Shown here piece by piece: positions 14,237 through 50,891 of a DNA stretch of 52,553 nucleotides. Position 1 is the stretch's first letter; each line of letters opens with the position of its first letter. The stretch comes from an uncultured Gammaproteobacteria bacterium. Its GTDB lineage: Bacteria; Patescibacteriota; Microgenomatia; Levybacterales; UBA12049. The notes under the pieces are model-generated. The model searched no databases and was not told where the DNA came from. It saw nothing but the letters and a program-made list of their open reading frames with translations. The translations under genes were made by a program, and so were the position numbers. The stretch covers positions 1-52,553 of the forward strand of contig CAZWMJ010000005.1 in NCBI GenBank assembly GCA_964635045.1, in the 5' to 3' direction.

Positions 14237-14884
14237 TTATCCGGTTTGGGATGCTAAAACACGTTCGTTGGACAAGCCGAAGGTGGTGCCGTGCTTTTTG
14301 AACATACTCCAATATTGTTTTTGTTTTTTCTTGCTTTTGAACATGGATAGCCATGAAGTAGCGTCTTCAATTCTCATTCGGGCGTGTTTTACAAAATTCA
14401 ATAGCCACGCGAAAAAGTTTTCATGATAAGCGCCTATTTTTGCCGGAATTTGTTCTACCACTATTTGTTTGTAGGTAATTTGAAGTTCCTGAGATTTTGA
14501 GATAAGCACTCTTAACTCAAAAAGAATCTCCTGAATTTTTTGTGTAACGCTTTGGTCTTTTTCTCTCTCAATTCTTTCTCCCGCATGCAAAATTTCCCGT
14601 CTGTAGTCAATGCCCGGTTCCACATTCCAGGCCTTTTTTTCGGAACGTTTTTCCGCCAGTTGGCTTAAATTTAATTCCTGTCCTTCCAAAAGATCTCCGC
14701 CACTGCGCGTTCCGTCACTGCGTTCATGTCCTCCTAACATTTGATTCCAAATACTATTTACCGATTCTTTGGCAAAATCAGAAGTAAAAGATCGGGCAAC
14801 TGCGCCGGGAATAGACTTTACATTCTCAAAAGAGTCTTGCTCGACAAGTCTTTCTGTTTTTACTTTTGTTTTATTACTTTTCAT
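14237..14884 (-). CDS. conserved Microgenomates hypothetical protein (DUF5660-like)
   Basis: C-terminal YWSMFKKHGTTFGLSNER and GIDYRREI motifs; family name from recall. Confidence 0.6.
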   Translation of the reverse strand: MKSNKTKVKTERLVEQDSFENVKSIPGAVARSFTSDFAKESVNSIWNQMLGGHERSDGTRSGGDLLEGQELNLSQLAEKRSEKKAWNVEPGIDYRREILHAGERIEREKDQSVTQKIQEILFELRVLISKSQELQITYKQIVVEQIPAKIGAYHENFFAWLLNFVKHARMRIEDATSWLSMFKSKKKQKQYWSMFKKHGTTFGLSNERVLASQTG

Positions 14885-17069: not shown

Positions 17070-17157
17070 GAATAATTCATCCTCGCATACTTTCGCTCTG
17101 TTGTCAAGTTTTCAAGGCTATGATAGAATTAGAATATAGGTGTATGGGCATGTGGCG

Positions 17158-17190
17158 CCCCACAAATCCGCCAGCTGGCGGATAGCGGGG
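17158..17190. repeat. perfect 18-bp palindrome nested in a CCCCAC...GCGGGG hairpin
   Basis: atccgccagctggcggat at 17166-17183, upstream of the tRNA cluster. Confidence 0.7.
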
Positions 17191-17320: not shown

Positions 17321-17403
17321 GGGTCGGTGGCGGAACTTGGTATACGCGCATGCTTGAGGTGCATGTCCCGCAAGGGGTGGAGGTTCAACTCCTCTCCGAC
17401 CCA
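17321..17403 (+). tRNA. tRNA-Leu(GAG)
   Basis: GGGTCGG acceptor, CATGC-TTGAGGT-GCATG, long variable arm. Confidence 0.95.
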
Positions 17404-17404
17404 C

Positions 17405-17486
17405 ATCTGCAAAGCAGATTTCTGATATTTCATGTTTACATTTTAAAAAGCTTAAAATTGAAAAGTAAAAATTCTGCTCTGCAGAA
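17405..17486 (+). mobile_element. 82-bp internally deleted (MITE-like) derivative of the GIY-YIG element at 23128-23436
   Basis: Ends ATCTGC-AAA-GCAGAT and TTCTGC-TCT-GCAGAA; interior 17425-17457 reads (I)FHVYILKSLK, a GIY-YIG N-terminus. Confidence 0.75.
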
Positions 17487-17561
17487 GGTCGATTAGCTCA
17501 ATGGTAGAGCGCTTCGTTTACATCGAAGATGTTGGGGGTTCGAGTCCCTCATCGACCACCA
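17487..17561 (+). tRNA. tRNA-Val(TAC)
   Basis: GGTCGAT acceptor, CTTCG-TTTACAT-CGAAG, ends ACCA. Confidence 0.96.
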
Positions 17562-17583
17562 TTTGTTGTATAATAAAGGTCCT

Positions 17584-17656
17584 GCCGAAGTTGCCAATGT
17601 GGTCAAGGCGTCCGCCTGAAGAGCGGATTATCGGTGTTCGATTCACCGCTTCGGCA
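17584..17656 (+). tRNA. tRNA-Phe(GAA)
   Basis: GCCGAAG acceptor, TCCGC-CTGAAGA-GCGGA, CGGTG-TTCGATT-CACCG; atypical GCC/GGC D-stem. Confidence 0.88.
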
Positions 17657-17684
17657 CCCGCCAAAAATTGAATATTTGGGCGGG
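17657..17684. repeat. spacer hairpin joining tRNA-Phe and tRNA-Gly
   Basis: cccgcc-aaaaattgaatatttg-ggcggg; starts right after the Phe discriminator and its last G is +1 of tRNA-Gly. Confidence 0.6.
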
Positions 17685-17755
17685 CGCGAGTAGTTCAGTG
17701 GTAGAACGTCTCGTTGCCAACGAGAAGGTCGCCGGTTCAATCCCGGTCTCGCGCT
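17684..17755 (+). tRNA. tRNA-Gly(GCC)
   Basis: GCGCGAG acceptor, TCTCG-TTGCCAA-CGAGA, U73. Confidence 0.96.
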
Positions 17756-17784
17756 CAAGGAGTCTGACTCGGCTAATTATTGCT

Positions 17785-18144
17785 ATGATATTTTGGGGAA
17801 AGGTAAGAAAACGAAGCGGCAGAGGCAAAACGCTTGGTTTCCCAACGGCAAATGTTAACTTGCGCAAGCCGATTTCTCAAGGAATTTATATTTCCCAAAC
17901 CAGAGTTGGGAAGAATTTGTATCATTCGGTTACTTTTATCGGCCAAGCCAAAACCTTCAACGAGACCAAGTTTCAGGCGGAGAGCTATATTTTCAACTTT
18001 AACAAATCAATCTACGGTCAATGGATATCTATGTATTTGATTAAAAAGATTAGAAATAATAAAAAATTTACCTCTAAAGAAGATCTTGTTAAAGAGATAA
18101 AAAAGGACATTACAAAAGCCAAAGCGTATTTTAGCCGATTGTAA
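17785..18144 (+). CDS. stand-alone riboflavin kinase (RibF C-terminal domain only)
   Basis: GRGKTLGFPTAN, QGIY, ESYIFNF and IRNNKKF motifs; start moved to ATG 17785. Confidence 0.88.
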   Translation: MIFWGKVRKRSGRGKTLGFPTANVNLRKPISQGIYISQTRVGKNLYHSVTFIGQAKTFNETKFQAESYIFNFNKSIYGQWISMYLIKKIRNNKKFTSKEDLVKEIKKDITKAKAYFSRL

Positions 18145-18279
18145 ATAACGGAAGTCGATTTTATCTTCCTAAACCACAGTAAAAAATAATCAAGGGCTGT
18201 TATACCAATTACTCCTGACCAGAGCTGCATTGATGTGCCCTTGAGTAAAACACAACAGACCGATTCCCTACCTGATAGT

Positions 18280-19038
18280 TTAGGGAAAAACAGCTCCCTG
18301 TGTTCTTCCATGATTTGTCGAGATGTCATATTGAACTTCTTGTTGTTTATATTTGTCTAGAATTTCGTTTCCCAGATTTATTACTCGCTGATTATGTTCA
18401 ACGCAATTATTAGAAAAAGGTAAACTGTAGAGAGCGTCCATGATTTCTTGAGTAGCCCCAGTTGCAATATCCTGATGCCCGCTTTCATGATTTTTTAAAG
18501 CCTCAATATACTTAGTCCATTTTGAATCCAAATTTGAATCGGGATTACCTGGTTTAATCCATTTAGGGAAGGTAAAAACTATATTTATTCTAACGAATGG
18601 TAGTTCATTACAAGGCTTCGACCAAATAATATCCCACTTTGTGTATGCATCATGTCTGCCATAGGAATCGGTAGGCCCAAGAGTATTCATTTGTTGTCTT
18701 AGATCGTTTTCCGTTAGTCCCTGAATATTATAATAATTTGTAACAATGTTTAGACCTATTTTTGGTTTACTAGACTTTACGGTATTTTCAGGTTGTTTAT
18801 CTTCTATAACTGTTTTTCGTGTGGGGGAAGGAGAGAGGGCCTCGTTATTATTGATTGTATCTTTATTTAAATCATTCGATATGCGAGTTTTTTGAGATAT
18901 ACTTATTGAATTTCCTTCGATATAGACGCGATAACCCAAAGACTGTAATCCTATGTATACTGTTATAAGTAAGATAGAGCAAATAAATAATATTCTTTTT
19001 CTCGTAATTTTTTTTAAAAATTTTTGTGACCCATCCAT
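18280..19038 (-). CDS. membrane-anchored DUF922-like putative Zn protease
   Basis: N-terminal TM; TFPKW, HESGH (HExxH) and YDISTNHGRTQG. Confidence 0.7.
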   Translation of the reverse strand: MDGSQKFLKKITRKRILFICSILLITVYIGLQSLGYRVYIEGNSISISQKTRISNDLNKDTINNNEALSPSPTRKTVIEDKQPENTVKSSKPKIGLNIVTNYYNIQGLTENDLRQQMNTLGPTDSYGRHDAYTKWDIIWSKPCNELPFVRINIVFTFPKWIKPGNPDSNLDSKWTKYIEALKNHESGHQDIATGATQEIMDALYSLPFSNNCVEHNQRVINLGNEILDKYKQQEVQYDISTNHGRTQGAVFP

Positions 19039-19065
19039 AATTTTCTTCTCTTACTAGCTGGCCGT

Positions 19066-20277
19066 TTATCGAAAATGTCGAATTTCTTGGATTTTGGTTT
19101 TATTAAGAGGCAGTTCAACAGTAAAGCTTGTGCCATTTTTTGGAATACTAGAAACTTTAATTCTCCCACCATGCATTTTAACTATCTCAGATGTTATAAA
19201 AAGGCCTACACCCAACCCTTTTTTATATTCCTTAGGTCCCGATGCATGTTTAAAAAGATCAAAGATAACTTTTTGTTCTTGAGTAGGAATTCCTATGCCC
19301 TCATCTTTAATGATAAATTTTCCCCAACCTCCGTTCATAAAAATCTTAATTTCAATTGGTTTGCTTTCCCCATATTTTATTGCATTCGAAATAAGATTTG
19401 TAATTACTTGCTCAATTTTTACCTTATCCCATCTTCCCACAACAGATGATTTTGCGTGGATTTTTATCTTGTATTTTTCTTTTTTTAACATCTCAGAAAA
19501 ACTCTGCTTTACCTGCTCTGTTACACTCACAAGATCAGTATCTTCAAGCTGTAATTTCATCCTTCCCGTTGAAATAAGAGAAACGTCAAGTAAATCGTTA
19601 ATTATTAATGATAACCATTTTATTTGTTGTTCCGAATTATTCAACACTTTCATTAATTTCTGAATTGAAAAATTTGCGAGCGAAACATTTTGTATGCTAT
19701 TTAACATGTCATGAAGTTTTAAAAGCATTATGGCAAGAGGTGTTTTTAGCTCGTGTGATACTATGGAAAGGAATTGGTCTCTTGCCTTGATGTTCTTACG
19801 GGCTATCTCATATTCATCATATAATTGAATAAAGGTACGTGCATATGTTTTCTCTTGTTTTTTTAATTTTGTTACTTCATTAGCTTCTTTAATTAAATTT
19901 ATTAGATAGCTTATAATAATTGCCCCACCTATGAAAAAGGCGAGTTGTATATACAAAGTTAAATCCAAATCAGTTTTGTAAAAAGCTCTGAAAAGAAAAT
20001 AGGCTTCAAGCGAAATAATCCCCATAGTCAATAAAGCAGAATATAAACCACCTAAAAAAGCGCTGAGGGCTATGATTATTAGAAAAAAAAGGTAAAAAGG
20101 TGTCTTATCGGAATAAGTTTTGAATAAATCAATTGCAAAATATATAAGTATTCCAAAAAGCGTGTTAGCTCCAAATATAAAAAAATACCTTACAAGTTGC
20201 CTTTTATATGATATATACCTTTTTGAGTAATTATATAGATTAAAAAATTTGTCTTTGAAATGTGGATCATTTTTCAT
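19066..20277 (-). CDS. sensor histidine kinase (DUF4118-like TM, HisKA, HATPase)
   Basis: SHELKTPL, NLISNAIKYG, DEGIGI and GLGVGLFI motifs. Confidence 0.93.
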   Translation of the reverse strand: MKNDPHFKDKFFNLYNYSKRYISYKRQLVRYFFIFGANTLFGILIYFAIDLFKTYSDKTPFYLFFLIIIALSAFLGGLYSALLTMGIISLEAYFLFRAFYKTDLDLTLYIQLAFFIGGAIIISYLINLIKEANEVTKLKKQEKTYARTFIQLYDEYEIARKNIKARDQFLSIVSHELKTPLAIMLLKLHDMLNSIQNVSLANFSIQKLMKVLNNSEQQIKWLSLIINDLLDVSLISTGRMKLQLEDTDLVSVTEQVKQSFSEMLKKEKYKIKIHAKSSVVGRWDKVKIEQVITNLISNAIKYGESKPIEIKIFMNGGWGKFIIKDEGIGIPTQEQKVIFDLFKHASGPKEYKKGLGVGLFITSEIVKMHGGRIKVSSIPKNGTSFTVELPLNKTKIQEIRHFR

Positions 20278-20357
20278 ATAGCATTACATTAGCAGACTTT
20301 GCCTGTGTAATTCAAGTGCGTTGGTGGTTAGTCCAGGTTAATGGTATAATTTAGGCA

Positions 20358-21296
20358 ATGCAAAAAACTATCCTTATTGTTGATGACGATGATGAGCTAA
20401 GGGACTTTTTAAAAAAAGTCTTGGTTGCTAATAACTTTAAAGTAGTAGAGGCATCTGATGGAGCGCAAGCTTTGGAAGCTGTAGAAAAATACTTTCCGGA
20501 TTTAGTACTTCTTGATTTCGGATTACCAAAAGTTCCAGGAGAAACTGTTTGTGTAAAAATCAAAAAAGACCACCCAAATATTATTGTAATTGCTTTAACT
20601 AAAAAAACCCAAAATTCTGATGTTGTGCATGGTTTACAAATAGGCGCTGATGATTATATAAGTAAACCTTTCGTTGCCGAGGAGTTAATAGCCCGAATAG
20701 ATGCAAGGTTTAAAAACAAAACTACCAATGCGCAAGTTCAATCAGGAGTAGAAGAATCATTGGTGGATGAAGCAGAGTCGGGCAAAATAATCTTTAGAGA
20801 AAGTGTTGCTTTAATTATTATCCGCTTAATCTTAACAGAAGCTCTCTTTGGATTTTCGATTCTCCTTTTTAATATTTTATACTCGTATATAAATTCATAC
20901 TTAAATAATAGCGACCTCTCTACTTTGTATTTTATAGTTTTAGGAGGAGCGTTTTTAATTAACCTTATGATGGTATCTTCGATTGCCTTAAAATGGGCAT
21001 CAGAATATACTGAGATATCCAAAGAAGGAGTTGTGAGACATACCGGCATTCTTCACAAAAAAGAACAAAAATACGCCTGCAATTTTGTTGAAGGAGCTAA
21101 GCTTAACCAATCATTCCTGGGATTACTTTTTAACTACGGGACAATTGAACTATATGATCCCGCTCTTAAAGAGCAAGTTTATTTATTAAACATAGCAAAT
21201 CCTAAAAAAAATAGTGAAAAAATACAAAAGATTGTTTCAAAGCCAAAAACTCAGCCTATGCCGTTTATAGTTGGAACGAACTCAAAAACTCAATAG
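20358..21296 (+). CDS. response-regulator receiver fused to two TM helices and a bacterial PH-like domain
   Basis: ILIVDDD, LVLLDFGLP and GADDYISKPF; C-terminal GVVRHTGILHKKE and QSFLGLLFNYGTIEL; no DNA-binding domain. Confidence 0.75.
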   Translation: MQKTILIVDDDDELRDFLKKVLVANNFKVVEASDGAQALEAVEKYFPDLVLLDFGLPKVPGETVCVKIKKDHPNIIVIALTKKTQNSDVVHGLQIGADDYISKPFVAEELIARIDARFKNKTTNAQVQSGVEESLVDEAESGKIIFRESVALIIIRLILTEALFGFSILLFNILYSYINSYLNNSDLSTLYFIVLGGAFLINLMMVSSIALKWASEYTEISKEGVVRHTGILHKKEQKYACNFVEGAKLNQSFLGLLFNYGTIELYDPALKEQVYLLNIANPKKNSEKIQKIVSKPKTQPMPFIVGTNSKTQ

Positions 21297-21337
21297 TTTA
21301 ATTAAAAAATCTTGTAGGACATAAACTTATTATATAG

Positions 21338-21372
21338 CCCTTCGACCCTTCGCTATGCTCCTCGCTCAGGGA
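21338..21372 (+). repeat. repeat-family copy
   Basis: cccttcgacccttcgctatgctcctcgctcaggga shares the TCGCTWTGCTCYTC core with 23514-23563 and 26871-26900. Confidence 0.55.
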
Positions 21373-21423
21373 GTTCGACTTTTAGATTTCAGAGATAATT
21401 TGACAAATATAGTGGTTATAACA

Positions 21424-21456
21424 GTGAGCGAACCCAATTTATTGGGTGAGTCGAAC
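21424..21456 (-). repeat. hairpin repeat at the 3' end of the disrupted tRNA-Gln
   Basis: Minus strand GTTCGACTCA-CCCAAT-AA-ATTGGG-TTCGCTCAC. Confidence 0.55.
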
Positions 21457-21458
21457 TG

Positions 21459-21565
21459 CTGGGAGACTAGGATTCGAACCTAGATAGTAAGATCCAAAGT
21501 CTTACGTCTCATCGCCTTTGGCGAGACCGCGCCGAAGGCGCTGGCTACCGTTAGATGACTCATGT
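21459..21565 (-). pseudogene. tRNA-Gln(TTG) pseudogene with 36-nt D-loop insertion and lost 5' acceptor strand
   Basis: TAAGA-CTTTGGA-TCTTA arm, CTAGG-TTCGAAT-CCTAG and TCTCCCA-G are intact; 5' ACATGAG cannot pair; insertion at 21509-21544. Confidence 0.75.
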
Positions 21566-21571
21566 CTAGAG

Positions 21572-21642
21572 CTGCCGGGCTTGGATTCGAACCAAAATAG
21601 ACGGATCCAAAGTCCGTCGTCCTACCATTAGACGACCCGGCA
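21572..21642 (-). tRNA. tRNA-Gln(TTG), intact
   Basis: TGCCGGG/CCCGGCA-G acceptor, GTCT-AATGGTA-GGAC, ACGGA-CTTTGGA-TCCGT. Confidence 0.95.
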
Positions 21643-21645
21643 GTT

Positions 21646-21888
21646 CTAGACACCAATCAATTTCTTAAATGCCTCTCCATGCTTATATTTCTTTATTTGT
21701 TGTTCTCTTTTAAAGGCTTCACTTTTTGTTTCAAATTCTTCTTCATAAACAATTTCAAATGGTCTATACGGCTTTGTCGATTTATTTTTACCTGCGTTAT
21801 GAGTTCTTAGTCTTTTATATTTATCCAATGTATGACTAATGTAATACCAATCATTAATCTTACTTCTTAGAATATAGGTAACATACAT
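21646..21888 (-). CDS. minimal GIY-YIG nuclease (80 aa, YhbQ/SLX1-like)
   Basis: MYVTYILRS..YYISHT..RLRTHN..STKPYRPF..EAFKREQQIK; the second motif has S instead of G. Confidence 0.9.
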   Translation of the reverse strand: MYVTYILRSKINDWYYISHTLDKYKRLRTHNAGKNKSTKPYRPFEIVYEEEFETKSEAFKREQQIKKYKHGEAFKKLIGV

Positions 21889-21892
21889 ATTT

Positions 21893-21967
21893 GATCCAAA
21901 GTCCGTTGTCTCATCGCCTTTGGCGAGACCGCGCCGAAGGCTCTGGCTACCGTTAGACGAACCGGCA
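21893..21967 (-). pseudogene. 5' half of tRNA-Gln(TTG) with the same 36-nt D-loop insertion, broken after the anticodon loop
   Basis: TGCCGGT-TC-GTCT-AACGGTAG-[21946-21911]-GAC-A-ACGGA-CTTTGGA-TC, then AAAT-ATG of the GIY-YIG gene. Confidence 0.8.
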
Positions 21968-22042
21968 ATCCTCATAATTATAGCACAGGAAGCGATTTTT
22001 TTGCGGTTGACCTTGGCTTCTAATTCAAATTATAATAATTGA

Positions 22043-22996
22043 ATGAAATATGGTTTGTTAATTCTGCTAAGCATTCTTTTAGGAATTTTAATGTGGCTTG
22101 TTTATCCGCTGTTAAAATCCGAAAAAATTACAATTATTTCATCTTTGCCCAATTTTCTGACTATGGCAAAAAATAATCAGGTGACAACTCTTGATTTGTG
22201 GCTTCCTCAGATAGATGATAGTAATAATGAAATAGGTTTTGCGCCGAATATCTCGGCCAGATCAGCTCTTGTTTACGATTTGACTACCAATCAGGTTATC
22301 TTTGCCAAAAATCCAAAGGACAAATTGCCTATCGCTTCTCTGACTAAAGTGATGACGGCAATTATTGCTTTGGAAAATAAAAGAAAGGACGATCGTTATC
22401 TGGTGGTAAAAGACAGTCTGGTTGGCGAAAACAGCATGGGACTTGCGCTTGGTGAAGTTTTGACAATTGAGGAGCTTTTATACGGACTGCTTCTTCCATC
22501 CGGAAACGACGCGTCGGAGGTACTGGCTGACAGTTTCCCTTCCGGCAGAGAGGGATTTATCAAAGCCATGAATAGCAAGGCAATGACCATGGGACTGCGA
22601 GATAGCAATTTTACAAATCCATCCGGTTTGGAAGGAGATGGTGATCAATACTCCACCGCATATGACTTGTTGGTGATAACCCGGTACGCCATCTCCAACT
22701 TCCCTTTATTTAATAAAATCGTTGCGACTGCGCAGTACAGTATTACCGAAACTCAAACACACAAGGAATATTACTTGCAGAATGAGACCAATCTTTTGAC
22801 AAGTTATCCGGGCGTTAAAGGAGTAAAAACCGGTTACACGCCGGAGGCCGGACTATGTTTAATTACTTACCTTGACTATAATGGACATCAAATTATTAGC
22901 GTTTTGTTGGGAAGCAGTAATCGAAGAGAGGAAATGAAAGAACTTTTGGATTACTCTCTCAAAAAGTTTGGAGTTAAGATTCTCGAAAGACCGTAA
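22043..22996 (+). CDS. D-alanyl-D-alanine carboxypeptidase (peptidase S11)
   Basis: ASLTK (SxxK), SGND (SxN) and KTG motifs; N-terminal TM. Confidence 0.93.
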   Translation: MKYGLLILLSILLGILMWLVYPLLKSEKITIISSLPNFLTMAKNNQVTTLDLWLPQIDDSNNEIGFAPNISARSALVYDLTTNQVIFAKNPKDKLPIASLTKVMTAIIALENKRKDDRYLVVKDSLVGENSMGLALGEVLTIEELLYGLLLPSGNDASEVLADSFPSGREGFIKAMNSKAMTMGLRDSNFTNPSGLEGDGDQYSTAYDLLVITRYAISNFPLFNKIVATAQYSITETQTHKEYYLQNETNLLTSYPGVKGVKTGYTPEAGLCLITYLDYNGHQIISVLLGSSNRREEMKELLDYSLKKFGVKILERP

Positions 22997-23043
22997 ACTT
23001 GAAGCAAAGTCTCATTTACGATACAATGGAAACTGTAAGTATC

Positions 23044-23126
23044 GGGCGAGTGGTGGAATGGTATACACGAAGGCCTTAAGAGCCTTTGACCGCAAGGTCG
23101 TGTGGGTTCGACTCCCTCCTCGCCCA
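23044..23126 (+). tRNA. tRNA-Leu(TAA)
   Basis: GGGCGAG acceptor, AAGGC-CTTAAGA-GCCTT, long variable arm; one T-stem mismatch. Confidence 0.92.
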
Positions 23127-23127
23127 C

Positions 23128-23436
23128 ACCTGCAGAGCAGGTTTCTTAAGACTTAATGTATAAGGTTTACTTATTAAAAAGTTTAGCTAAACCTGAAAAA
23201 AGTTATGTAGGTAGAACAATTAAACCGATAGTGGAACGTTTAAAAGAACATAATTCAGGTCAAGCGAGGTCAACTAAATCTTATATACCGTGGAAGCTGA
23301 TATATTATGAACAATTTTATTGTGAATTATGTTCAGATAAAAGAGAGGTTTTTCTGAAATCGGGAAAGGGTTTTAGATTAAGAAAAATTATATTAGAAAA
23401 CCAAGAGTTATTAAGATAGTGTTCTGCTTTGCAGAA
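23128..23436 (+). mobile_element. 309-bp GIY-YIG cassette with inverted hairpin termini, between tRNA-Leu and tRNA-Pro
   Basis: Left end ACCTGC-AGA-GCAGGT; right end GTTCTGC-TTT-GCAGAA(C), where the C is +1 of tRNA-Pro. Confidence 0.75.
23156..23419 (+). CDS. minimal GIY-YIG nuclease (87 aa)
   Basis: MYKVYLLKS..SYVGRT..RLKEHN..STKSYIPWKLIYYE..KREVFLKSG. Confidence 0.92.
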   Translation: MYKVYLLKSLAKPEKSYVGRTIKPIVERLKEHNSGQARSTKSYIPWKLIYYEQFYCELCSDKREVFLKSGKGFRLRKIILENQELLR

Positions 23437-23510
23437 CGGGGAGTAGCTCAGTTGGCTAGAGCGCGCGGTTTGGGACCGTGAGGTCGGAGGTTCAAGTCCT
23501 CTCTCCCCGA
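23437..23510 (+). tRNA. tRNA-Pro(TGG)
   Basis: CGGGGAG acceptor, CGCGG-TTTGGGA-CCGTG. Confidence 0.95.
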
Positions 23511-23513
23511 CAA

Positions 23514-23563
23514 GTTTACACTGAGGAGCAAAGCCAAGTCAGACTTGGCAAAGCGACGAAGTG
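23514..23563 (-). repeat. tRNA-abutting repeat with nested GCCAAGTCAGACTTGGC palindrome
   Basis: gtttacactgaggagcaaa-gccaagtcagacttggc-aaagcgacgaagt|G, where G is +1 of tRNA-Gly. Confidence 0.75.
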
Positions 23564-46932: not shown

Positions 46933-47006
46933 TACCGCGTGCGGGAGTCGAACCCGCGATTTTCGGGATGAAAACCCGACGTCCTAGGCCACTAGACGAA
47001 CGCGGC
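46933..47006 (-). tRNA. tRNA-Glu(TTC)
   Basis: GCCGCGT acceptor, TCGGG-TTTTCAT-CCCGA. Confidence 0.94.
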
Positions 47007-47040
47007 AAAGTCAGACTTTGCCAGCCAAGTTTGACTTGGC
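47004..47040. repeat. tandem palindromes at the 5' end of tRNA-Glu
   Basis: GGCAAAGTC-A-GACTTTGCC (47004-47022, overlapping tRNA +1 to +3) and GCCAAGT-TTG-ACTTGGC (47024-47040); same family as 23533-23549. Confidence 0.75.
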
Positions 47041-49849: not shown

Positions 49850-50891
49850 CAGTTTTCAGATATTTATCAAAAAACTCAATCGAGCGTTTCATGGCAGTAT
49901 CAAAACTATTAGTTAAGTTATGGTCATCGCCTTCATAAGAATAGAGTTCAACAAGTTTGTTAGCCTCTTGAAGTTGGGTATTCAATTTCTCTGAAAAAAT
50001 AAATGGGACATGGGAATCGTCTTTTGCATGATGAAGTTGCATTAGTCCGGAAATATCTTTGACATAAGAATTGGCAGAAATTGAGTTCCAAAACTGTGGA
50101 TTTTTCGAAGGCTCACCATATTGGTCAATCAGGTTTTGCCTCCAAGAAGTTGCCCAAAAAGGCGGCGCGCTTGAGGGCGGCGTTCTTCTCCTCCAGTTTT
50201 CCAGTAAATCCTGGTATGAGCCAACTACCCCTGCCCAAATCACGCCGACTTTAATGTCTTTTGAAATAACCATTGAGCGCAAAGTAATACTTCCTCCCAT
50301 TGAGTGTCCCCACATGCCCACTCTTTCAGGATCTGCATCCTGGTATTTTTTGATGGAGCTTAAAGCGTTCAAGACGTCAATTGTATAGGCATTTGAACCA
50401 TACCCTCCCTCTGCTTTGCCTTCGGAATTTCCATGTCCGCGATAATCAGATTTAAAAACTATATAGCCATTTCTGGCAAATGCATCAACATAATCTGTAT
50501 AACGTTCAGTTGTTCGATATTGTACTGGTTGAATATAGCCATGATTAAAAATAATCACCGGCCAGCCCGAAGTCGGCCTCTGGCCGATGGGAACAGTTAA
50601 TAAAGTACAAATTTTAAGACCATCGGATTTGTAAGAGGCAATATACTGATTATAATTACTCCCAGGAAGAAGTGTTTGTTCGATGGTGATCTCGCTTCCC
50701 GGATATACTTGCTTTCTCATATATTCAATTGACAAGGGGTGCAGCTCTTCTTGAAGTCCTCCTAAATTGCTATCTTCTATTTGGGTCTTGTCCTTTTGAG
50801 ATGATAGGTTCGATAAGAAAACACCAGTCAAAATAATTAAAACGCCGAAAGTGCTTAAAATAACAATGAGAATTGGGTTTGCTTTCAACAT
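49827..50891 (-). CDS. S9-like alpha/beta hydrolase, membrane-anchored
   Basis: NHGY, DYRGHG, WGHSMGG, DSHVP and DDHNL; paralog of the C-domain of 30920-33271. Confidence 0.85.
   Translation of the reverse strand: MLKANPILIVILSTFGVLIILTGVFLSNLSSQKDKTQIEDSNLGGLQEELHPLSIEYMRKQVYPGSEITIEQTLLPGSNYNQYIASYKSDGLKICTLLTVPIGQRPTSGWPVIIFNHGYIQPVQYRTTERYTDYVDAFARNGYIVFKSDYRGHGNSEGKAEGGYGSNAYTIDVLNALSSIKKYQDADPERVGMWGHSMGGSITLRSMVISKDIKVGVIWAGVVGSYQDLLENWRRRTPPSSAPPFWATSWRQNLIDQYGEPSKNPQFWNSISANSYVKDISGLMQLHHAKDDSHVPFIFSEKLNTQLQEANKLVELYSYEGDDHNLTNSFDTAMKRSIEFFDKYLKTDEYTKNS

Follow-up and report, generated by a model that had tools for sequence, protein, structure and literature searches.

Free-standing GIY-YIG homing endonucleases are known from phage tRNA gene clusters, as SegB is from that of T4 (PMC2330249). 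Prokaryotic Slx1-like GIY-YIG domains have in turn been described as fusions to a TrmH-like tRNA Gm18 methyltransferase, and as fused to or operon-linked with COG4123 methyltransferases, with a suggested role in RNA metabolism (Dunin-Horkawicz et al. 2006, PMC1564403); these fusions are a further independent link of this clade to tRNA. Here we describe a tRNA-associated GIY-YIG gene on contig CAZWMJ010000005.1 (assembly GCA_964635045.1; Patescibacteriota, Microgenomatia, Levybacterales, UBA12049 in GTDB), whose 52,553 nucleotides (nt), forward strand, were analysed as a whole and are called the window below. With moderate confidence we take the 309-bp spacer between its tRNA-Leu(taa) and tRNA-Pro(tgg) genes to be a selfish cassette, namely, a lone SLX1/UPF0213-type GIY-YIG gene capped by 15-nt hairpins and lodged inside a tRNA operon. 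This cassette has been exchanged horizontally between distant Microgenomates, being present or absent at the same junctions and occupying different junctions across lineages.

Judged by analogy, T4 SegB is the nearest functional analogue. Like the Seg genes of T4-like phages, the cassette is an intergenic GIY-YIG gene in a tRNA cluster, with horizontal (non-Mendelian) inheritance and conserved flanks that could serve as repair homology, and it combines presence or absence at a conserved site with horizontal spread, as homing endonuclease genes do. Unlike the bare 87-aa catalytic domain found here, Seg proteins exceed 200 aa and carry a DNA-binding domain; moreover Seg genes are not known to carry bounding hairpins, and the cassette family has neither an IMG/VR relative nor a PHROG match and finds I-TevI a weak structural match. 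Closest in sequence and fold are the SLX1 and UPF0213 proteins (PDB 7cq2, 6sei, 4xlg; 1ywl, 1zg2), and the branched-DNA cutting of SLX1 would fit targets at stem/loop borders; unlike SLX1, the cassette protein has no RING domain or SLX4 partner, and its gene is multi-copy, mobile and tRNA-linked. To our knowledge no function is established for lone UPF0213/Slx1-like GIY-YIG proteins. IS200/IS605 and REP/RAYT systems resemble the present one in pairing small hairpins with a dedicated nuclease gene, in clean insertion without target duplication and in their scattered hairpin units without an open reading frame (ORF), but they employ an HUH Y1 transposase with covalent intermediates, whereas a GIY-YIG hydrolase is the only ORF here; no target tetranucleotide rule was found for the cassette.

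Element structure at two tRNA junctions

ARAGORN and Rfam agree on 16 tRNA genes in the window, and at its gathering threshold Rfam reported these 16 tRNAs only, with no known RNA family over the hairpins. Two spacers, 17405-17486 and 23128-23436, run from one base past a tRNA-Leu discriminator (17403 for Leu(gag), 23126 for Leu(taa)) until they lie flush against base 1 of the following tRNA (17487 for tRNA-Val, 23437 for tRNA-Pro). The equivalent placement of two elements claimed in the initial annotation is thereby confirmed, as are the four hairpin sequences that it gave (Table 1) and its reading of the long copy as an 87-aa GIY-YIG protein (Pfam 2.3e-9); its description of the right hairpin as the inverse of the left holds for loop polarity and the CTGC/GCAG core and does not hold for the outer stem pairs, which differ. 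TTCT stands directly 3' of both left hairpins, and the right hairpin at 23422-23436 can also be drawn with 7 bp (GTTCTGC/GCAGAAC) by borrowing base 1 of tRNA-Pro. The core CTGCNNNGCAG occurs four times in the window, all at the four hairpin sites, against a chance expectation of 0.37 (none of 100 shuffles reached four). No target site duplication was seen at the window elements; the earlier statement that no transposase or integrase is involved was checked by eye only, over 15.5-25.5 kb.

A consensus scan of the plus strand found no promoter-like site between tRNA-Leu(taa) and the GIY-YIG ORF. The one upstream of tRNA-Leu (Table 1) is the likely start of a Leu-GIY-Pro-Gly transcript, and the cassette is probably co-transcribed with the tRNA operon. 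Intrinsic termination was considered as a role for the hairpins and rejected: the consensus scan flagged only the minus-strand reading of 17472-17486, and no sense-strand T-run follows the hairpins.

Horizontal transfer and junction occupancy

Two scans for relatives of the nuclease yielded 160 loci, labelled L001 onward, within which hairpin motifs were also counted; the close clade (E<1e-33) comprises 15 unique elements. In the comparison with one of these loci, L014 (identical to L001), a Microgenomates metagenome-assembled genome, the Leu-GIY-Pro block is 93.4% identical to the window at the nucleotide level over 470 nt, the alignment ending at the outer tRNA borders, whereas shared genes are 68-69% identical or do not align (blastn). 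Orthologous proteins of the two are 38-68% identical, against 89-90% for the GIY-YIG protein. The corresponding values for L002 are 38-41% for proteins and 74% for the GIY-YIG, while Levybacteria stand closer to the window genome (proteins 56-62%) and yet have GIY-YIG proteins just 62-63% identical to that of the window. Such discordance between gene tree and genome relatedness points to a horizontally transferred gene that has remained under selection. For the ORF compared with L014, synonymous divergence (dS) is 0.34 and the ratio of nonsynonymous to synonymous divergence (dN/dS) 0.13, and the nuclease gene is under purifying selection.

Occupancy of the same junctions differs among relatives. 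Leu(taa)>Pro(tgg) is empty (15-16 nt) in L033 and L125 and measures 305-393 nt in ten loci. At Arg(tct)>His(gtg) neither the window nor L014 has an element, and L018, L033, L065 and L125 have one; L125 and L033, which have the same Leu-Pro-Gly-Arg-His array as the window, show the opposite occupancy. At Leu(gag)>Val(tac) there are 23 nt (empty) in L125, 82 bp in the window, 96 bp with hairpins and no ORF in L019, and a full element in L100. On a neighbour-joining tree of the proteins (given without support values), elements from different junction types interleave. Several copies per genome were found in L014, L019, L052 and L089, and the window itself holds two intact copies and the 82-bp remnant within 52 kb. 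The initial annotation had proposed a discrete hairpin-bounded GIY-YIG element tied to tRNA junctions, had pointed to Leu-Pro and Leu-Val as junctions that relatives might have empty, and had set strictly vertical inheritance without empty alleles against its own proposal. Inheritance proved discordant (93% nucleotide identity beside 38-68% for proteins), and empty alleles exist at Leu(taa)>Pro, Leu(gag)>Val and Arg(tct)>His, all of which speaks for a horizontally mobile element.

When L014 is set against window positions 22043-23511, its Leu-GIY-Pro block has the opposite orientation with respect to the S11 peptidase gene, and that gene is flanked on its far side by a tRNA-Gln followed by an N-truncated GIY-YIG copy. 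Rearrangement breakpoints there thus coincide with tRNA/GIY-YIG units.

Hairpins in the close clade

The layout tRNA-hairpin-ORF-hairpin-tRNA is found in all 15 unique elements of the close clade, mostly at Leu(taa)>Pro(tgg) and also at Arg(cct)>Pro(cgg), Arg(tcg)>Pro(tgg), Arg(tct)>His(gtg) and Leu(gag)>Val(tac). The left stem begins right at the tRNA end in 13 of the 15, and right stems end about 2 nt or less from base 1 of the downstream tRNA, the gap at tRNA-His including G-1. Left stems read ACCTGC, ATCTGC, TTCTGC, CTCTGC or GTACTGC around loops AAA, AGA or ATA, and right stems TTCTGC, TTCTTC or TTCTCC around TTT, TCT or ATT. Since each variant stem has a matching 3' arm, stem pairing is under selection. 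We rejected the idea that left and right hairpins pair together or represent one shared terminal repeat: right-stem changes (TTCTTC, TTCTCC) are not mirrored on the left. Inside stems G:T and A:C mismatches are equally frequent (5 of each among 1203 pairs), a comparison of low power given such short stems.

Motif sites of the CTGC type number 102, of which 47 stand beside a GIY-YIG ORF or flush with a tRNA; the remaining 55 are mostly short chance stems in coding sequence. As 41 of those 47 are GIY-adjacent, the possibility raised in the initial annotation that the hairpins flank tRNAs regardless of GIY-YIG genes does not hold for this type. In L095 (6270-6428) a right hairpin unit of 19 nt, CAAAGTTCTGCTCTGCAGA, stands in about seven tandem copies between the GIY-YIG stop codon and tRNA-Pro. 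In L108 (758-818) a right-type hairpin, TTCTTC-TCT-GAAGAA, follows just past the stop of a protein gene, with a left-type one, TTCTGC-AGA-GCAGAA, 31 nt on; neither adjoins a tRNA or GIY-YIG gene, and the pair indicates that CTGC-type hairpins can occur in other contexts.

The GIY-YIG protein

The Pfam GIY-YIG model (PF01541) matches the products of 23156-23419 and 21646-21888 with E-values of 2.3e-9 and 6.5e-14 (37.8 and 52.4 bits; cut-off 22.6), and in an alignment of 39 relatives Y5, Y17, R28, H32, N33, E52 and E64 are invariant. Among 5.8 billion proteins searched there were 144 relatives, nearly all of 77-127 aa and from the Candidate Phyla Radiation (CPR). A profile search of 1.84 billion representatives at 50% identity found 17,848 clusters at E<=1e-3 and 4,343 at E<=1e-10, nearly all of them lone domains of 76-130 aa. 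An exact-sequence look-up of the 87-aa window protein returned no record, and close homologues were used. Among PDB sequences the nearest in a profile search are the UPF0213 proteins 1ywl (3.8e-8) and 1zg2 (1.1e-7), followed by SLX1 (9e-6). The AlphaFold2 model, with a predicted local distance difference test (pLDDT) score of 95.2, shows strands at 2-9, 16-21 and 46-54 that together with the helices form the GIY-YIG fold; its top Foldseek matches are all GIY-YIG domains, the best of them SLX1 nuclease domains (template modelling (TM) score 0.61-0.66, 28-34% identity), with the I-TevI catalytic domain ranking far lower. The catalytic domain takes up the whole 87-aa length, and a C-terminal DNA-binding domain is not present.

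We considered a phage origin and rejected it, there being no IMG/VR relative and no PHROG or NCBIfam model. Because the nearest sequence and fold relatives lie among SLX1 and UPF0213 proteins and those phage-side searches found nothing, the predicted protein is assigned to the SLX1/UPF0213 type, as a bare catalytic domain unlike a phage-type homing enzyme with its DNA-binding tail.

The 82-bp unit and a decay series

The initial annotation had read the 82-bp spacer as a short copy that keeps a decayed N-terminus of the ORF. This is borne out: the stretch between its hairpins corresponds in place and sequence to codons ~2-10 in each of four full elements (dinucleotide shuffles, P < 0.001 for L100 and 0.008-0.018 for the other three), and its 3' part resembles the last codons and stop of the L100 ORF, a resemblance seen in the alignment and given without a shuffle test. 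By its sequence, then, the 82-bp unit is an internal-deletion derivative of the full element with the ends kept. Other reduced forms occur: in L108 an intermediate of 229 bp has its ORF cut at residue 55 and retains both hairpins, and L014 has an N-truncated GIY-YIG copy at tRNA-Gln. Together with the double hairpins described below, the sizes form a series of 305-330, 229, 82-96 and 30 bp.

Since L100 has a full copy at this Leu(gag)>Val junction, decay in place is the simplest account of the 82-bp unit as a deletion remnant. The suggested pairing of an autonomous with a non-autonomous element therefore stands as far as derivation goes; mobilisation in trans finds no support, since that junction is full in L100 and the window has one copy of the 82-bp type. 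Multiple copies at non-orthologous sites were found instead for the 30-nt double hairpins of other lineages.

A wider tRNA-linked family with double hairpins

Full-length genes of the wider family are associated with tRNA genes: 66 of 99 have a same-strand tRNA within 150 nt, compared with 110 of 1244 long ORFs in the same loci, and every tRNA within 150 nt of a family gene is on its strand. The common design begins with the first 9-22 nt of the downstream tRNA, exactly duplicated, followed by a 20-nt palindrome or a 30-nt double hairpin, the next tRNA bases and then decay; after this come the ORF and, 0-15 nt later, the intact tRNA. It recurs at tRNA-Ser or tRNA-Tyr genes of CPR lineages and at tRNA-Arg genes of Flavobacteria, and the tRNA-Gln locus of the window, where a third GIY-YIG gene lies (Table 1), matches it. 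On this evidence the cassette belongs to a large putative family of tRNA-linked selfish elements across CPR and Bacteroidota.

An upstream tRNA copy with a 20-nt or 30-nt hairpin insert was present in 44 of 95 loci. In most of the 32 loci with an alignable continuation, the tRNA sequence resumes at the next base, that is, the inserts are clean and without target duplication there. Insert positions fall at D-stem/D-loop borders (9-14, 20-22) or in the anticodon arm (28-38); the insertion points of the window elements are both ends of acceptor stems. Adjacent double hairpins number 65 in 1.82 Mb, where chance would give about 4; of these 65, 47 (72%) lie within 150 nt of a GIY-YIG gene. Read on the sense strand, their first loop is A/C-rich (CAA, CGA, AGA) and their second T/G-rich (TTG, TCG, TTT), the same polarity as in the left and right hairpins of the window. 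Because of this shared loop polarity, the left and right hairpins of the window element look like a double-hairpin module (2 x 6-3-6) split in two by the ORF.

At the tRNA-Gln locus, a direct repeat of 68 nt (91%) is common to fragments A and C; A itself combines parts that resemble C with parts that resemble the intact tRNA. We considered that the third ORF might lie inside a tRNA intron, which was rejected when ARAGORN with introns allowed gave no intron-containing tRNA at this locus. In Flavobacteriia and other Bacteroidota (L029, L039, L060, L076, L082, L059), a 22-nt copy of the 5' part of tRNA-Arg stands ~36-80 nt upstream of the GIY-YIG ORF. It is identical to the downstream tRNA of its own genome, although acceptor stems differ by species (GGCTGCG, GGCCTCG, GGCCCAG), and it decays past the 20-nt palindrome; this identity within each genome indicates recent independent insertions or ongoing conversion between copies.

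Double hairpins also occur alone, far from any GIY-YIG gene. Solo 30-nt units lie in frame at L107:891-920, L078:13830-13859 and 14394-14423, and L034:19752-19781, in TrmD-like, RecG-like (twice) and DnaJ-like genes, where each adds 10 residues (e.g., SARGGSAFGG); all four have the same orientation, purine-rich loop first. In the window, an intergenic site at 50563-50587, CCAGCCCGA-AG-TCGGCC-TCT-GGCCGA, has no GIY-YIG gene nearby and looks like a decayed form of the canonical CPR double hairpin CCAGCC-CGA-GGCTGG TCGGCC-TTG-GGCCGA, which is GIY-adjacent in other genomes.

The ORF-less units have their nearest parallels in certain mitochondrial elements of fungi and in Rickettsia. The double-hairpin elements and GC clusters of fungal mitochondria are very small, GC-rich and presumably mobile, and they occur alongside free-standing GIY-YIG ORFs, and the mobile GIY-YIG ORF at Allomyces atp6 recalls the tRNA-Gln locus in bringing a replacement copy of part of its target and displacing a fragment; unlike the present family, these elements are organellar, differ in sequence and have no shown linkage to tRNA stem/loop borders. 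Rickettsia palindromic elements are likewise ORF-less palindromes found in frame in housekeeping genes, and the relation of the 82-bp unit to the full element, an internal deletion, is that of miniature inverted-repeat transposable elements to theirs; unlike both, the units here are far smaller (30 nt), do not duplicate their target site and have no known type of transposase.

Table 1. Positions of tRNA, hairpin and GIY-YIG features in the window
Feature	Position	Strand	Remarks
Left hairpin ATCTGC-AAA-GCAGAT of 82-bp unit	17405..17419	+	
Right hairpin TTCTGC-TCT-GCAGAA of 82-bp unit	17472..17486	+	
82-bp internally deleted remnant	17405..17486	+	Relic of ORF codons ~2-10 at ~17426-17454; apparent relic of ORF end at ~17455-17471
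tRNA-Leu(gag), left flank of 82-bp remnant	17321..17404	+	ARAGORN, Rfam
tRNA-Val(tac), right flank of remnant	17487..17561	+	ARAGORN
Promoter-like site TTGAAG-17-TACAAT	22999..23027	+	Consensus match only; upstream of tRNA-Leu(taa)
tRNA-Leu(taa), left flank of full element	23044..23127	+	ARAGORN, Rfam; discriminator 23126
Left hairpin ACCTGC-AGA-GCAGGT (6-3-6, purine loop), then TTCT	23128..23142	+	Kept with compensatory variants in 15 unique relatives
87-aa lone GIY-YIG gene, SLX1/UPF0213-like clade	23156..23419	+	Pfam; catalytic Y5, Y17, R28, H32, E64 intact
Right hairpin TTCTGC-TTT-GCAGAA (pyrimidine loop)	23422..23436	+	Flush with base 1 of tRNA-Pro; compensatory variants TTCTTC/GAAGAA, TTCTCC/GGAGAA in relatives
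tRNA-Pro(tgg), right flank	23437..23511	+	100% identical to L014 counterpart
Fragment A, tRNA-Gln 5' part	21967..21893	-	nt 1-21 (21967-21947); ~36-nt double-hairpin insert in D-loop (21946-21911); tRNA up to anticodon arm (21910-21893)
Third GIY-YIG gene, 80 aa, MYVTYILRS...	21646..21888	-	Pfam 6.5e-14; overlooked in the initial annotation
Intact tRNA-Gln(ttg)	21571..21642	-	3 nt past stop codon of third GIY-YIG gene
Fragment C, tRNA-Gln pseudogene	21457..21558	-	Without first ~8 nt; same double-hairpin insert in D-loop

Proposed mechanism

If the 309-bp spacer is a selfish cassette, the nuclease may act at tRNA genes on structured DNA, cutting it in a manner like that of SLX1 on branched DNA, and the break would be repaired from an element-bearing copy with the conserved tRNAs as homology arms. 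Repair with tRNA arms would replace the whole spacer without any precise insertion, which would account for the flush borders. The hairpins would then be the part of the module on which the nuclease or the repair acts as DNA. On the transcript, release of the tRNAs by RNase Z and RNase P would leave the nuclease mRNA with a stem-loop at each end. These DNA and RNA readings of the hairpins are not mutually exclusive. The DNA reading draws on the two-fold symmetry of the loops, the discrete insertions, the lack of a G:T excess (in the comparison of low power given above), the likeness to a structure-specific enzyme and insertion at stem/loop borders. In outline the initial annotation was largely right, in that a mobile hairpin-bounded GIY-YIG gene sits at tRNA junctions and has a derived short form; the trans-mobilisation of its 82-bp unit finds no support here, and the recognition of hairpin ends by the nuclease is putative.

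A bolder reading, which we offer tentatively and consider possible without thinking it probable, is that this is a new class of bacterial mobile DNA, in which a bare SLX1-like nuclease would recognise folded DNA (hairpins and the cloverleaf of a single-stranded tRNA gene) rather than sequence and would mobilise 15-nt hairpin units along with itself; the minimal non-autonomous form would be the 30-nt double hairpins, and the 82-bp unit would be an intermediate. If true, it would provide a function for bacterial proteins of the UPF0213/YhbQ type. In any case lone UPF0213/Slx1-like proteins are now linked to horizontal transfer, to a recurrent double-hairpin module and, across CPR and Bacteroidota, to tRNA genes, so that a "hypothetical endonuclease" can be modelled, in testable form, as a selfish nuclease guided by structure. 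Such a model would help explain how a nuclease without a DNA-binding domain finds its target, why the tRNA arrays of reduced CPR genomes are rearranged and littered with tRNA fragments, and where the 10-residue inserts in CPR housekeeping proteins come from. It also matters for annotation, as such spacers, tRNA fragments and 30-nt inserts are at present left unannotated or read through as protein. We found no prior description of the hairpin/tRNA/GIY-YIG arrangement in the full-text literature, a coverage outside which most subscription journals fall.

Weighing of alternative explanations

Several observations weigh against the selfish, DNA-acting cassette. The 87-aa domain is without the DNA-binding domain that gives Seg and I-TevI their site specificity. 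Most members of the wider family have their ORF outside the pair of hairpins, which means that "hairpin ends" are no general rule, and left and right stems show no mutual co-variation. The hairpins sit at RNase Z and RNase P sites, down to the G-1 shift at tRNA-His, which a role in RNA alone explains equally well. Some CTGC-type hairpins have no GIY-YIG gene (L019:2064, at the end of a tRNA array; L108:758 and 804), and conserved hairpins of a second, GIY-less family (GCCAAGT) flank tRNAs in the window. The neighbour-joining tree of the proteins carries no support values. The loci were sampled by nuclease similarity, which biases the counts made in them. Finally, all relatives are metagenome assemblies, in which identical tRNAs could in principle seed chimeric joins; this last worry is countered by discordance in two separate lineages and by recurrence of the L002 arrangement in an independent Joint Genome Institute (JGI) assembly (L003).

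The hairpins could be transcript signals, with the nuclease gene still a mobile passenger: RNase Z and RNase P would release an mRNA with a 5' stem-loop after 1-2 free bases and a blunt 3' stem-loop, protected from exonucleases, or the hairpins would insulate tRNA folding from the ORF. Terminal stem-loops do stabilise bacterial mRNAs, and the positions of the hairpin borders (left in 13 of 15, right within ~2 nt, and at G-1 of tRNA-His), the independent compensation of each stem without left-right co-variation, the promoter-like site upstream of tRNA-Leu with none inside, and the conserved hairpins without GIY-YIG genes in other tRNA leaders and trailers of the window and its relatives all fit. 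We nonetheless think it unlikely as the whole explanation, given that stems show no G:U wobble excess (in a comparison of low power), that the opposite loop polarity is a DNA-type two-fold symmetry with no obvious RNA rationale, that hairpins persist in ORF-less remnants (window, L019) and that 15-nt units are also paired inside tRNA sequences and in frame in protein genes, where a role as mRNA end-cap is impossible. To a strict transposon, whose GIY-YIG protein recognises and cuts hairpin ends and which targets tRNA junctions as an autonomous hairpin-ORF-hairpin unit, mobilising the 82-bp unit and the 30-nt double hairpins in trans, we give a similarly low probability. It would explain the ORF-less double hairpins as discrete insertions after which the tRNA resumes at the next base, the exact 10 codons added to TrmD-, RecG- and DnaJ-like genes, the nearness of 72% of double hairpins to a GIY-YIG gene, the size series, the two-fold symmetry that loop polarity gives the ends, and the sevenfold tandem right hairpin of L095; but GIY-YIG enzymes are hydrolytic nucleases for which we know of no strand-transfer chemistry, in-situ deletion suffices for a junction that is full in L100, the window has a single 82-bp-type unit, and in most of the family the ORF is not between hairpins.

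Two further accounts seem to us very improbable. A domesticated SLX1-like repair nuclease, vertically inherited and placed in tRNA operons for expression among ordinary spacer hairpins, would be consistent with the strong purifying selection and invariant catalytic residues and with the S11 peptidase-Leu-GIY-Pro synteny shared with L019 at similar divergence (61% vs 62%); it is opposed by the 93% DNA identity of the cassette beside orthologous proteins at 38-68%, by empty junctions in relatives, by truncated copies and by the copy number (two intact and a remnant in 52 kb of a small genome, and several in L014, L019, L052 and L089). Equally remote is a nuclease acting on tRNA or other RNA, with the tRNA linkage reflecting functional coupling to tRNA metabolism rather than DNA targeting. 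The breakpoints of tRNA fragments do fall in the D-loop and anticodon arm, and Slx1-like fusions to a tRNA methyltransferase exist (PMC1564403). However, duplicated and interrupted tRNA gene fragments are DNA rearrangements, and horizontal transfer and decay favour a selfish DNA element. We also know of no GIY-YIG RNase.

Other hairpins near tRNA genes

The GCCAAGT-NNN-ACTTGGC hairpin is present in three window copies (0.17 expected), none with a GIY-YIG gene attached. Two of them form a double hairpin at 47005-47040 (sense minus strand), flush with the 5' end of tRNA-Glu, and the third (23533-23549) is located between tRNA-Pro and tRNA-Gly. Identical 17-mers recur in L095 and L100 and, in L025, at three tRNA-Ser genes, where each overlaps the GCCA 3' end. 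A perfect 18-nt palindrome, ATCCGCCAGCTGGCGGAT (17166-17183), stands upstream of the Leu-Leu-Val-Phe-Gly array, in the leader that separates its first tRNA from a promoter-like site at 17101-17129.

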